Origin: an uncultured Planctomycetota bacterium
Lineage (GTDB): Bacteria > Planctomycetota > Planctomycetia > Isosphaerales > Isosphaeraceae
Direction of reading: 5' to 3'
DNA length: 64,000 nucleotides
Assembly: GCA_963845755.1 (NCBI GenBank)
Contig: CAWJTV010000037.1
Coordinates: 82,969 to 146,968, forward strand
Position 1 is the stretch's first letter, and each line of letters opens with the position of its first letter. The notes beneath the pieces are model-generated. The model saw nothing but the letters and a program-made list of their open reading frames with translations. It did no database searches and was not told where the DNA came from. Positions 56,069-64,000 of the stretch are shown piece after piece. Position numbers and translations under genes: made by a program.

Positions 56069-56141
56069 GCCCTCCTAGCTCAATTGGCAGAGCAGCTGAC
56101 TCTTAATCAGCGGGTTGTAGGTTCGAGTCCTACGGGGGGCA
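56069..56141 (+). tRNA. tRNA-Lys(CTT), no encoded CCA
   Basis: Acceptor GCCCTCC/GGGGGGC, D arm TAGCTCAATTGGCAGAGC, anticodon arm GCTGA-CTCTTAA-TCAGC, T arm GTAGGTTCGAGTCCTAC. Confidence 0.97.
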
Positions 56142-56214
56142 CTTGCGACAGTATCCGGCAGTTTGCGGATGGATGCGCCTAACCCCGCAAACTCCAAAGG
56201 GTTGCGATCCATCT

Positions 56215-57467
56215 TCACGTCATCGTCGAACCCGTCATTCCGCCAATTTCCGGCAGCATCTGTACAGTTGCGGGCTCTGCGGTGGGAAAATGGTGGGAAA
56301 GGCGTTCGCTTATGGGTGTCACAGCGGGGTCGGTCCGCGTCATGGCGACGGGCTCGGCCGGGGTCGATTCCCTCGGGGTCAAGTCGGGGAGATTCTCGAC
56401 CGCTCCCTTGATATCATGCAGGGAAGCCTTGGCATAGACGCCGATGGTCAAGGCGGGGGTCGAATGCCGGGCCAAGGTCTGACAGGTCTTGACTGACGCT
56501 CCCGAGGCGACGAGGTTGGACACGTAGGCGGCGCGAAGGGCATGGAAGTCGGCGATCCCCGTGGCAGTCTCGTAGCGGGATGCCGGCGGCTTCCAGGTTG
56601 ACGCGGAGCATCTCGGCCGTGCGTTCGGTCATCCCGTCGAACACGGGCTTCCCAGGGGCCTTACGGGACAGCCAGTGGCGGAGTCGATCGGCCAGCGCCA
56701 CGGCGATCGGCTGGATAGCTTCCTTGCCGTTCTTGGCGTAGGCGGCTTGGACCGTCACGGTCGGAGGGTCGGCATCGAGAGCGAACCGCTCGGGGGTCAA
56801 CGTCGCCAACTCGTCCGCACGGAATCCCGTCCCAAGAGCCAGGTCATAGAGCCTCGCACGCTCGGGGCCAGTCAACCCCCCGGCCTCGGGGCCGGCTCGG
56901 CGGCCTTGATGACTTTGACGGCCTCCTCGGGTGTCAGGGCGCGGCGGATCCCGGCGGCGGTCGGCTTGCTCGTTAAACTTGGCCAGAGTCTCCAAAGTGT
57001 AATCCGGGGCTCGGCCATCGCGCTTGAGCCATCGGGAAAGCGACTTGGCGGCGGTCAGGTAGGCGTTGACGGCGCGGGCCGACAATTCATCGGCCTTGAG
57101 GGCGGCCACGGCCTGCATGACCGCGGAAGGGGTCAGATCGGCGATCCGCTCGATGCCGGCCAGCTTGAGGACGCGCTCGATGTAGGTCCGGGTCGAACGG
57201 ACGTGCTTCGGGTCGCACCCCTTGGATTCCATCCCGGCGATGAAGTCGTCGATGTGCTCGCCGATCGGACGGCTTGCCTTCCCGTGCGATCCGTTCGGCC
57301 TTTGGATCGGACAGTCCGGCCCGAACGCGGGCGGCCCGTGCCTCGGCGTCGCGGGCCAGTTCCTCGGTCACTCGCTTGTCGGGGCAACCCTTCCGCTCGC
57401 GCTTCTCCCCGTTCTCATCCACGAAACGGTAATACCAGACCTTGCCATGCTTCCTGAACGACGCCAT
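56215..57467 (-). CDS. Tyrosine recombinase/integrase (several frameshifts)
   Basis: Arm-like N-terminus MASFRKHGKVWYYRFVDENG; catalytic motifs GFRADEL, KNG, DFHALR, LARHSTPALTIGVY. Confidence 0.92.
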
Positions 57468-57468
57468 G

Positions 57469-57691
57469 TCACTTCCCTTTCCTCGCATCATCTCGGGGCC
57501 GAATCACAATCTCAAATCCGAGGGCGTCCAGAATCTTGTCGATCGTCTCGAAGCTCGCCTCGCGTTCCCCTTTGAGGAACTTGGAAATCGTTCCCTCGGT
57601 CAGCCCTACCAGCCGGGCTAAGTCACGCTGCGAAATACCTGCGCTCCCAGAGCGTCTCTTGAACCATTGCTCTCAACTCCGGACCGAACAT
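57469..57691 (-). CDS. XRE/Cro-like HTH regulator (one frameshift; missing from the ORF track)
   Basis: GAGGGGAG RBS; GISQRDLARLVGLTEGTISKFLKGEREASFETIDKILDALG; stop 1 nt before the integrase ATG. Confidence 0.8.
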
Positions 57692-57743
57692 CGCTTGCTC
57701 CCCTCGAAGGGATACGGGGCATCCTTGCCCCTCGGGTTGATCC

Positions 57744-58094
57744 TCAAAATACGCGGCGACCAAGACCATGCAACTGGTTGACGCACGCGATGGTATCTTC
57801 GGTGGCCAGCGTATCGCACCGATCGCAAAGCCCCTGAAACGTCAGGTCGCGCAACGATCGCCACAGTTCAGGCAGTGGCCACTCAGCGGCATGGTGTCGT
57901 CAAACCGGTGATACCACAGCGCCTTGAGCGGCCTGCTCTTCCAGCCGGCGGTCGGTTTCGAGGTCCCCGAAGAACTGGGCAGCCCAGTTCAGATCCTCGA
58001 TGCTCGGAACGAAGGGCCGGCGGCGGTCGGGCTGAATCCCGTGGCCGAACGACTCGGACTTGACGGAACGGGAGGAATCGAAGACCGTGGTCAT
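57744..58094 (-). CDS. Small protein with C-terminal zinc ribbon (two frameshifts)
   Basis: Joined frames give MTTVFD...WAAQFFG...GHCLNCGDRC/DLTFQGLCDRCD...RRVF*. Confidence 0.55.
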
Positions 58095-61491: not shown

Positions 61492-61750
61492 AATTCCCCA
61501 GCTCAACGGGTCGGACTGTCCAACGGCGGGCTGGGATCCGCTCGCATCGGCCGGTCCACGTCGGGCCGAGCGGTTTGCAACCCGCGGGGCCACCCGTCGA
61601 TATAATGTACCCATGACCACTCAGATTTGGAAGGGTCTAAAGCCCTGGATTTGAACCCGCCCATATGCAGTCATCGGTCGCGAGTCGGGCCGGGTTCGGA
61701 TAGCCGGGCGGAATCCCCAGTGCGATAACGGGCTATAGAGCTAGGTCCAC

Positions 61751-62306
61751 CTAGCCAAATAGGATTCGCATGAAGAACCGGATCACATAGATGGGAATCC
61801 CGACCATCAGCATGAGGGTGCCCAACACGCTCATCGCGACTCCCAAATTTCTTGAACCGCTCGCAGCGACAACCACACCACCGAATAGTGGGATACAGGA
61901 GCAGATAACGAACCGAAGAAATGATCGAAAGAGAGACGCCCTCCGGTGCCCCGCGGAGGCGGAAGCGGCGGCTGAGGAACTCGTCGAAACGTTGTTGTTC
62001 ACAAATACGGGTTGCCGGTGAGCGCGCGCAGCGACTTGGCCTCTTCCGCGGCCCGCAAAGTCACATCGAGTATCTCCCCACAGTATCGGCACTTCTTGGC
62101 GGCGAACTGGGTCCCGTTCACCGCAGAACGGACATGCCTTGGCCTCTGGGGTCCTTGTCGCAACCTGCACAGCCTCCATCACTGGGACGGGCTGGAACTT
62201 GTTCTGGCACTCGGGGCAACGGACCACGCCGGGAAATGCGCTGCGATCCGGGAGACGCCCTTCTCGCCCGCAATGAGGGCAGAGAATATTCAAGCTCGAT
62301 CCCATA
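61751..62306 (-). CDS. Double zinc-ribbon membrane protein (frameshifted)
   Basis: CPHC...CPEC and CPFC...CRYC motifs followed by two C-terminal TM helices. Confidence 0.7.
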
Positions 62307-62724
62307 CGGTTCGACCTCTCTACGTTAAGAAGACGAATCCAGAGCACTGGGTGACGCAAGAATCCGGTTCGATCATCCCACTACCTTGGAGCTTACTCTC
62401 TCGACCCCCAAGGTTCGCACATCGATGTCAAGCGACACTGCTTGTTCTTGGCTACTTAGCCTCACAACACTGTCGCGATGCATAGCAGCCAACATGATGC
62501 CATTGGCGTGACAAGGATGCAAGAGGCTGAAGAGAAAGTAAGCCGCTCGACTGCCTGTGGTTTTTTGCGTACATGCGACTTGACTTTGATGACGGGATGC
62601 GTGTATCCAAGTGGATGTGCGCAGCCGGAAGCGACCGCTGCCGCCGTTCCCCTGCTTCATGTCGGGCAGGGCGTGGGTATCGTTCTTGTGTGCCGAAGTG
62701 TTCGACGTTCGGAGAAAGGCTTCC

Positions 62725-63318
62725 ATGAGTATTCGATCTTTGTTCGTTGCCCTTCTATTGGGACTATCCGGTTACCTGCGCGGAAGCCTGGCATGGTCAC
62801 GTTCGACTTTTCGAGCTTGGCCTCGGATGTGGGGAACAATACCGCCATGGCTGAGGTCGTATCCGGCGCATTCACGGCGTATATCTATGATTTCACGCCA
62901 TACCGCGCCGTCGAAGACGGCGGCCAGATCGGCATCGTGTTCGGTGCGCTGGTTGACCGGTGGCATGTCCATCACGCTCAGTAACGGTGCCTTTGGCATC
63001 CCGTTCCTGCTGGATGGCGTAGAGGCAACCTTTGCCTCCAGTACGTCCTCCCACGTGCACGAAGAAGGGACAACCGACAACGACAATGTTGTGCTGTGGG
63101 ATTGGAATAACACCATCACCGGAATCCAGACGGAGACCTTCGTCCCAACGTCCGGGCCCATATCAATGCCCTACCTGAATCTCAACCCCTACGCCGACGA
63201 CGAAGGATTGCTTGTGACCTTCACCATCGACGTTGTTCCCGAACCTTCCTCCGCGATCCTGCTCTCCATCGGCACGCTCGTCGGGCTGGCTCATCGGCGG
63301 ATCATCTCGCGAAGGTAG
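62725..63318 (+). CDS. PEP-CTERM sorting-domain surface protein (frameshifted)
   Basis: Signal peptide MSIRSLFVALLLG; C-terminal VPEPSSAILLSIGTLVGLAHRRIISRR. Confidence 0.85.
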   Translation: MSIRSLFVALLLGLSGYLRGSLAWSRSTFRAWPRMWGTIPPWLRSYPAHSRRISMISRHTAPSKTAARSASCSVRWLTGGMSITLSNGAFGIPFLLDGVEATFASSTSSHVHEEGTTDNDNVVLWDWNNTITGIQTETFVPTSGPISMPYLNLNPYADDEGLLVTFTIDVVPEPSSAILLSIGTLVGLAHRRIISRR

Positions 63319-63323
63319 ATGGC

Positions 63324-64000
63324 TCAATTGAACGGACAGGTTCGGAGTCGGCGGGAGTGGGATTGTTCTCGTAGGCGGCAAGAACCTCCAGGACCGCGGC
63401 GGACCTCTCGGGCATGGCCTGTGCTGCGCCGGAGTGTCTGCTTCGGACTCCGCGGCTTGGCCGGATCGGAAGCCAGCCTCATCTCGACTTTATCAGCGGG
63501 GAGATTCGTCGGCGGCTCCCGGGGTTCTGGACGCCGCCGGGTCGTAGTCCGGCCCGCATCTACTCGAGGGATCCTGACCGCAGCGGCGTACTCTCCGCAG
63601 CTCCATCTGGTGAACAACCATCGTCTTCCGAAACTTGGTGGCGAGCATTTCGCGCTGCTGCTTTGAGAGATCCTTCTTATTATCCGGAAGTGTGTCGATC
63701 AAGCGGCTGCCAGCAACAGAGTGCAAGGTCTCAAGTCGCTGTTGTGCCTCTGAGCCGGCGGACATCCAGTCGCGCGGGTTTGTTCTCTATCCTGCACATC
63801 GACAAACGAATCCCAGGCTTCATGTGTGTTCCTCCCAATGGTAGCGGGTTGACCACCTAGTATGCGCCGTACGGGTCCGCGCCCGTTACCCCGTCGTTCC
63901 CCATACAGGGCCACTGAGACAGCGTCAAGCGATCGATCGTCGAAGCCCATGTCCGCGGTAGCGTGTGAAGGCAGCGTAGGCAGTCGGCGTTTCGCCGGGC
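63324..64000 (-). CDS. Fragmented hypothetical protein(s), possibly extending past the right edge
   Basis: Overlapping minus-strand ORFs 63324-63950; no recognisable family. Confidence 0.3.

Follow-up and report, generated by a model that had tools for sequence, protein, structure and literature searches.

In a planctomycete genome, a likely defective member of a capsid-less, tRNA-integrated and probably satellite-like replicon family

The PICI (phage-inducible chromosomal islands) have five core components in the SatelliteFinder definition, of which the Staphylococcus aureus pathogenicity islands (SaPIs) lack the capsid-morphogenesis component; according to the accessible part of that source, more than 99.9% of the PICI belong to Proteobacteria or Firmicutes, with no occurrence of 'Planctomyc' in its main text (PMC10085698). 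The present analysis concerns an element in the 64,000-bp stretch of DNA analysed here (hereafter the window), which forms the last 64 kb of contig C37 (CAWJTV010000037.1) in the 14.3 Mb, 49-contig genome (G000; GCA_963845755.1) of an uncultured planctomycete of the Isosphaeraceae. The element lies directly behind a tRNA-Lys(CTT) gene and, on balance and with some reserve, is read as a likely defective copy of a family of tRNA-integrated, capsid-less replicons that likely spreads in the manner of PICI-type satellites, in borrowed phage-type particles. This would add a family of PICI-like type to a phylum whose literature yielded no satellite paper. The family itself was not found described in the literature on planctomycete or Isosphaera satellites, PICI, prophages, AlpA and gene transfer agents (GTA), as covered mainly by open main texts (PMC7947584 in its accessible part). 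The copy in the window adds little beyond a pointer to this family.

As far as the PICI sources are accessible, the family shares with the SaPI and EcCICFT073 types an integrase, an AlpA-type regulator, a primase-replicase, a small terminase (TerS) and a size of about 10 kb, and no tail or holin gene was found. By the same sources, the complete family members hold four of the five components (type B), one of them carrying a scaffold-like gene in addition, and the window copy holds two of the five: the integrase with its attachment (att) site, of which only the left one (attL) is secure, and AlpA are present, whereas of the primase-replicase the helicase is kept and the primase deleted. The family differs from the PICI in having a separate RepA-type helicase and DnaG-type primase, an att site inside the integrase gene (int), the large terminase (TerL) in some members, core genes that point at int in the order alpA-helicase-ori-primase-xre-int, and planctomycete hosts. 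By its genes it would work like a PICI, and membership itself is unproven. The PICMI (phage-inducible chromosomal minimalist islands) of Vibrionaceae lie next to fis, carry DUF3987/DUF5906 primases and, in the accessible part of the report, resemble an excised circle of the present family (L205, below) in a minimal int, alpA and primase core of about 6 kb with no packaging gene (PMC10803314); the present family differs in its tRNA targets (tRNA-Lys beside folD in the window), its AAA_25 helicase with a CHC2/TOPRIM primase and its frequent TerS, and the tests for PICMI derived from that part came out negative. The psu, delta, sid, epsilon and alpha genes of P4-like satellites had no Pfam or PHROG match in the window or its relatives, and the capsid, portal and head-tail genes that capsid-forming PICI (cf-PICI) own were not found in the complete relatives.

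For the integrase, the nearest parallel is phage Mx8, in which attP lies inside the tyrosine-integrase gene and integration swaps 112 C-terminal residues for 13 while the catalytic core is kept; in the accessible parts of the reports the integrated-form enzyme is described as less active or altered in specificity (PMC4701971, PMC6070905). On the same partial basis, an att site in the 3' part of int, a retained core and an exchanged C-terminus are common to both. Mx8 is a full temperate phage, whereas the tail gained in the present family is a conserved unit of about 35 aa with two helices, found across many tRNA targets. In the archaeal SSV1-type 'suicidal' integrases the recombination site also lies in the gene, and integration parts the catalytic from the N-terminal half and leaves both inactive, as stated in the accessible part of the source (PMC8371274). 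Splitting on integration is common to the two, but here the whole catalytic domain stays with the promoter.

The initial annotation had proposed that the same gene order be sought in other planctomycete genomes, and syntenic relatives were indeed found at many tRNA genes, with the family order alpA–helicase–iterons–DnaG-type primase–(xre)–int–tRNA. At tRNA-Cys, the same genome holds a sister element split between C31:1-6016 (L003) and C37:1-10647 (L005), with a 58-bp att pair; C31 (reversed) and C37 are thus neighbours, since the element spans both. It carries a primase, a resolvase-like gene, a PRTase, TerS-like and TerL genes, and HNH and SEC-C cargo. Its helicase was matched in 28 of the 61 genomes searched, including 22 of 36 in the same family, and a CHC2 primase directly follows the helicase in 11 of 20 loci fetched, mostly with alpA before and int and a tRNA gene after; the remaining nine are distant helicases, contig ends or loci with the neighbourhood missing. 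The helicase-then-primase order recurs in the C31 sister, in locus L081 and in seven metagenome loci. Eight elements with both att sites measure 7.4, 7.5, 8.4, 10.1, 10.6, 14.5, 18.5 and 19.8 kb; att-bounded elements occupy tRNA-Lys, Leu, Phe, Met, His and Ser genes, and two of the eight use a different replication gene. Capsid, portal and tail genes gave no PHROG match in 131 open reading frames (ORFs) of relatives, a set chosen on codon score among 332 candidates and a few additional ones. The metagenome contig L205 has 5,873 bp and a terminal repeat of 123 bp; it holds alpA, helicase, iterons, primase and a joined integrase, and is an excised circle (5.75 kb) of the helicase-primase subfamily. 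Thus, of the earlier proposal of a minimal satellite or integrative element family, the family stands on synteny, att pairs, TerS-like genes and the circle, whereas a minimal, primase-less design does not. Weighing against the overall reading, the genomes compared are kin and not independent samples, and the IMG/VR searches returned 0 and 2 helicase loci and eight integrase loci, none with the family gene set.

Two further relatives were noted in the course of the survey. In G014:C21 (L043:5699-18974) a single tRNA-Leu carries two members in a row, and a DNA polymerase A fragment follows the primase of the inner member. A helicase-primase-resolvase block with an unbroken primase ORF lies at G000 C28:20362-23546 (L054:10363-13547), with no integrase or tRNA nearby.

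The integrase of the family reads through the att site, and the joined form produced after excision gains a conserved tail. In 88 integrase loci (the best 80 of 430 confirmed metagenome loci plus eight from IMG/VR), an antisense tRNA lies downstream of int in 40, and the integrase frame is open into it at 37 of these 40, compared with 17 of 80 for the other two frames; in most loci att falls 60-125 codons past the catalytic domain. When attP junctions were built in silico, the tail motif was present in eight of nine, in frame across att and unbroken in six; two of the remaining junctions had a single indel in the tail region and one was without the motif. A joined integrase-tail ORF was found in five of the 88 loci, three of them contigs with terminal repeats (two of these near-identical), and in a database protein of 578 aa (P0008), which had no tblastn match among GenBank phages. 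Two 5.5-kb circular contigs (L193, L197) carry a joined integrase and a serine recombinase and have no helicase of the family type. The tail profile matches 8,881 protein clusters (E <= 0.001), the best 150 of which are all short proteins, and has matches in 34 of the 201 genomes taken from across the phylum, with no credible match in Pfam or NCBIfam. On these counts, the Mx8 oddity of an att site inside int with a swapped C-terminus would become a common design, and the tail could readily serve to mark where such islands end on the far side.

In the structure model of the joined protein the tail forms two helices behind a disordered linker of about 105 residues, the conserved unit being about 35 aa. 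Four tail copies modelled together scored 0.67 against 0.02 for the best control, with at least 90% contact agreement between runs and pLDDT of at least 80; of 30 solved homo-pairs, 20 came up to the score mark used, as did 1 of 23 single chains, and these counts are rough for a four-copy job. The tail is therefore predicted to self-associate. In an intact member, induction of the leftward operons would fall to AlpA and Xre. The integrated form would then use its tail-less integrase, AlpA serving as directionality factor, to excise the circle; and the integrase of the circle, ending in the two-helix tail predicted to self-associate, would favour re-integration, as for phage Mx8. Such a built-in directionality switch could be useful for integrase tools.

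In RSF1010/IncQ replicons, replication involves the RepA helicase, the RepB primase and iterons. The window copy encodes a RepA-like AAA_25 helicase of RecA fold (58842..60048, minus strand; PF13481) with an N-terminal helical domain and a C-terminal winged helix, its frame carrying two indels. The structure was modelled for the intact sister helicase (pLDDT 82) in place of the window copy, and the best match was RSF1010 RepA (1g8y; Z 19.9, root-mean-square deviation 2.8, 213 aligned residues), tied within 1 Z with other RecA-fold ATPases. The winged helix matched 9f27 (Z 9.8, root-mean-square deviation 1.6, 63 aligned). Foldseek returned RAD51/RecA-fold entries throughout, RepA being absent among the matches listed, and the search of PLSDB gave one weak match only. 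The family thus shares with RSF1010 a helicase fold closest to RepA, a separate primase and iterons; it differs in that no separate RepC or relaxase was found and the helicase carries its own winged helix, a feature that recalls P4 alpha.

Directly after the helicase stop lies an iteron-like cluster (58680..58830) with CGGACA four times and CCCTAGGG twice. The repeat cluster pointed out in the initial annotation is real: the four CGGACA copies fall within 107 bp (58714-58820), as against 41 copies in the whole 64 kb (shuffle p=0.012). The gap between helicase and primase held its own enriched 6-mer in nine of 12 elements tested (p<0.05), mostly differing from element to element. As a point against, about 16% of 190-bp host windows also hold four copies of some 6-mer; the statistic is modest alone, and the case hence rests on position and recurrence. 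The cluster is likely the replication origin and would be read by the winged helix of the helicase: the winged helix would bind the adjacent iterons and the circle would be replicated with the DnaG-type primase of the element.

In place of a primase the window copy has an ORF of 47 aa (58508..58651, minus strand), unlisted in the initial annotation, in which a start codon with an AAGGAGG ribosome site is fused in frame to a C-terminal 'EERAAILEFD' tail. Its first residues resemble the primase N-termini of relatives and the remainder is the primase C-terminal tail; from start to tail it spans 39 nt, compared with 1,084 and 1,092 nt in two intact relatives. By this comparison, about 1.05 kb of the primase (CHC2 + TOPRIM) is deleted in frame from the window copy. 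The absence of a primase, taken earlier for a minimal design, is thus not a trait of the family, since intact members of the same helicase type carry a CHC2-TOPRIM primase after the iterons; the nearest helicase (L081; support 99/97) is followed by a full primase. In addition, 10 1-bp indels (11 on recount) were counted in 3.6 kb of core genes against 2.8 expected (P=0.0007), the expectation being taken from differences among 17 copies of an insertion sequence (IS), 0.8 per kb; no such excess is seen in the tRNA-Cys sister element. The window copy is therefore judged likely to be defective from its sequence. Without a primase of its own, it would depend for any movement on complementation by a co-resident sister and on a right end still present in the gap beyond the contig. 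The alternative of a decayed remnant, raised at the outset, fits the window copy as such, yet syntenic homologs exist, contrary to what had been coupled to it.

Several points speak against the copy being defective. There is no in-frame stop codon in its int or helicase (the integrase stretch 57467-56389 has none when breaks are read as X), and the indels lie mostly within short base runs and near the contig end. The indels may therefore be assembly errors, in view of the short runs, the contig end, the frameshifted host folD and the lack of in-frame stops; when they were assigned to one assembly by codon score, most calls came out undecided. The folD gene (54911-55831) stands next to the tRNA gene, and its frameshift is in itself a sign of assembly indel errors. 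Moreover, the element at tRNA-Lys in genome G001, which has the sister integrase, carries a different, 680-aa ATPase and has no primase match, so that primase-less members may be viable.

These points feed the alternative that survives best, which is nevertheless unlikely: a working primase-less variant, in which the indels would stem from faulty assembly, the gap would hold the right end, and host DnaG or the sister primases on C28 and C31 would provide priming, possibly via the 47-aa peptide. Besides the missing stops and the G001 element, it would account for the remnant ORF having kept its ribosome site and its frame and still overlapping the gene that comes next, for the unbroken C28 primase ORF, and for an AlpA 91% identical to that of the tRNA-Cys sister. 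It is opposed by the indel excess and, above all, by the primase N-terminus present in all other members with the same helicase type and readable downstream DNA, L081 included; the 47-aa protein, furthermore, has no near-length homolog besides itself, although this is a weak test. A likely defective copy remains the preferred reading.

Mobilisation of the family by phage particles would follow from its terminase genes. Matches to small-terminase PHROGs lie just inside the far end in six of the eight complete elements (E 1.5e-10 to 9e-4), and both TerS-like and TerL genes occur in the tRNA-Cys sister and in an element on G001:C2. The latter (L044:10453-13354) has TerS, a whole TerL of 479 aa and a scaffold-like ORF that shares 32% identity with the resident scaffold described below, with no capsid found. 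Where present, TerS would redirect the packaging motor of a helper. The slot expected for TerS in the window element would fall in the gap, and none was found in the window or in the C45 piece of the island (below). Against this stand the limits of the matches, which are mostly confined to the N-terminal helix-turn-helix (HTH) part and in some cases weak, and the failure to detect TerS in the circle L205 and in two complete elements.

The next alternative, an improbable one, is an integrative replicon with no dedicated packaging hijack, moving by general transduction, GTA-like random packaging or transformation, its TerS-like genes being HTH regulators or passengers. The circle with no detectable TerS, the few IMG/VR matches and the many TerS-TerL pairs of element type outside such elements would all fit. 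They are outweighed by the fixed slot of the TerS-like gene in the complete elements, by the homology of the TerS of four elements to TerS preceding TerL (three at E 8e-14 to 2e-9 against the TerS on contig C11), and by the two elements that hold TerS with TerL, one of them with the scaffold-like gene as well. Spread in the manner of a PICI-type satellite is hence still favoured.

As for a helper, PHROG matches reveal a resident head-gene cluster at G000 C11:142.7-151 kb with portal, scaffold, major head and head-closure genes, unlike PF05065 and PF04860, which gave no capsid or portal in this genome. A TerS-TerL pair interrupted by an HNH-containing insert lies at C11:108.9-111.7 kb (L086-L089), 31 kb from the portal cluster (142.7-167 kb). 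The resident portal was matched in 45 of 61 genomes of the family. A second TerL class adjoins the portal in all 15 loci fetched and has only its C-terminal half in common with the TerL of the elements, and in G015 a TerS-TerL pair of element type stands directly before the portal. The cluster is a candidate helper for the elements and is put forward as a lead. It is weakened by G001, G017 and G033, genomes 87-96% complete that hold elements yet have no portal match, and by the lack of any int or helicase within 10 kb of most of the element-type TerS-TerL pairs examined. Many such pairs, several of them close to tRNA genes, were recorded at L121-L135. At G000 C4:56292-56896 (L004) a fragment of a same-clade integrase points towards tRNA-Sec, and at the end of that contig stands a TerL belonging to the portal-linked class.

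A bolder extension, at present doubtful, is that the elements live as satellites of a GTA-like particle, domesticated and present in most genomes of this planctomycete family: they would bring TerS and sometimes TerL and a scaffold-like protein, alike in kind to those of the resident head cluster, the motor of the resident cluster would have been lost or displaced in some genomes, and direction would be set by the circle-only oligomerising tail, which would explain thousands of orphan mini-ORFs as cut-off integrase halves. If true, the particle exploited by the satellite would be one that the host itself owns.

The integration target at tRNA-Lys(CTT) is intact at 56069..56142 (plus strand; ARAGORN, and RF00005 of Rfam with 68 bits); the Rfam scan of the element gave this tRNA and its antisense shadow only, with no C4-type RNA. 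The 46-bp attL core (56096..56141, plus strand) runs from the anticodon stem to the tRNA 3' end, and its crossover start equals that in the tRNA-Lys elements of G001 and G014. An arm-type direct repeat, GGTGGGAAA twice (56280..56300, plus strand), is matched at both ends of the G001 element (20/21 nt). Since contig C37 stops at position 64000, the element is incomplete in the window, and its right part would fall in the gap beyond, which weighs against the overall reading. The duplicated tRNA 3' end that the initial annotation had proposed to look for was found as a 45/46 copy of the att core, which is the only further tRNA-Lys fragment and lies on contig C45 (61731-61686, minus strand), 10.1 kb from the end of that contig; neither the arm repeat nor the integrase tail accompanies it. 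The 10 bases after it (TTTTAACTCTA) equal those after the attR of G001, and it is for that reason probably the outer host boundary of a composite island, as judged from sequence. It was considered as attR of the window element itself and is unproven as such, being without arm repeat and tail and with the flanking synteny broken (its flank maps to different G001 contigs than the flank of the G001 element). An integrase tail or arm repeat belonging to the right end of the window element was not found in the assembly, and this end is lost or unassembled. Closing C37 into a circle by joining its own two ends was rejected, since the right end at C37:10.6 kb carries a tRNA-Cys fragment and is part of the C31 element.

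The 10.1 kb before the C45 att hold only a group II intron reverse transcriptase, an IS4 and an S1/P1 fragment; in this island remnant (L002:6014-11081, G000 C45) the IS4 has 17 near-identical genome copies and the intron reverse transcriptase is multi-copy. That the visible 8 kb are the left end of an ordinary prophage or integrative and conjugative element, with structural or conjugation genes in the unassembled gap, is very improbable: the contig does stop at 64000 and IMG/VR contigs also carry integrases of this clade, one of them (L221) with TerL nearby, but the eight complete relatives of 7.4-19.8 kb have no virion match, the last 2.5 kb of the window are cargo and the DNA before the C45 att has the content just given. 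Capsid, terminase, tail, relaxase and type IV secretion system (T4SS) genes had been reported absent, and the window ORFs scanned against Pfam, PHROG and NCBIfam gave no match to any of them, nor did these ORFs or the 131 of relatives give a PHROG match to holin, portal or head-tail genes; for relaxase and T4SS, there was no Pfam match in the window, the C45 piece and the sister elements either, the accessory ORFs of other relatives having been scanned with PHROG only.

The co-oriented int, Xre, AAA_25 ATPase and AlpA-like genes described right behind tRNA-Lys are confirmed by domain matches and lie on the minus strand. The tyrosine integrase (56075..57467) has the R-K-H-R-H-Y motifs and five 1-bp indels; its last frame continues across attL and within the antisense tRNA as far as a stop at 56075, a read-through that requires one indel to be corrected. 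In the tree it is sister to the G001 tRNA-Lys integrase (support 100/99). The Xre/HTH_3 regulator (57469..57691, minus strand; PF01381, E 2.7e-12; one indel) is 70-82% identical to the copy in the tRNA-Cys element. At higher positions lie Zn1 (57744..58094, minus strand; two indels), a conserved protein with two CxxC pairs, and Zn2 (58229..58511, minus strand; one indel), a small CxxC ORF whose start overlaps the stop of the primase remnant and which has no homolog in the loci of relatives searched. For these two supposed Zn-ribbons, the CxxC patterns are present and a family match is lacking in both. Upstream of Zn1-xre-int (58124..58232, minus strand), the sigma-70-type promoter proposed before was recovered as TTGACT-18-TATAAT at 58232-58203, with 11 of 12 consensus matches, together with a 15-bp hairpin (58124-58156). 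Their function is putative, and the region is conserved among relatives; 57304-58260 has 79% DNA identity to the tRNA-Cys element. By these comparisons the window copy is a mosaic, with its integrase sister to that of G001, xre-Zn1-promoter near the tRNA-Cys element and its helicase from a third branch.

At the other end, the AlpA/Xis-like HTH gene (60045..60269, minus strand) is intact, and its stop overlaps the likely helicase start; it matches HTH_17 (E 3e-4, below the Pfam cut-off) and phrog_66 (E 4.7e-7), the identity to the tRNA-Cys copy extending over 47 aa. Next is a 69-aa ORF (60282..60491, minus strand) with no homolog found. The operator-like direct repeats noted earlier are present as five copies of GTGGC[GT]GG (60561..60650), a stricter 9-mer occurring at 0.034 per kb genome-wide; an operator role is suggested. 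The large frameshifted ORF at 60712..61492 (minus strand, end approximate) had been labelled an HTH protein, a positional guess, as it has no Pfam, PHROG or NCBIfam match; in relatives this slot holds variable proteins with a C-terminal HTH-like segment. A non-coding stretch (61542..61606, minus strand) is conserved at 82-84% over 56-57 nt with the tRNA-Cys element and the element of G015, with no Rfam match. The cargo at 61750-64000 is lower in GC (0.589, host 0.649) and includes a frameshifted Zn-ribbon protein with a hydrophobic C-terminus (61751..62305, minus strand) and a frameshifted PEP-CTERM protein (62728..63318, plus strand; TIGR02595, 18.2 bits, cut-off 16). Elsewhere, a frameshifted IS4-type transposase gene (51483-52966) lies upstream of the host genes in the window, and large tRNA gene arrays, which include a second tRNA-Lys(CTT), occur at G000 C41:590256-593662 (about 36 genes) and C20:431840-451106.

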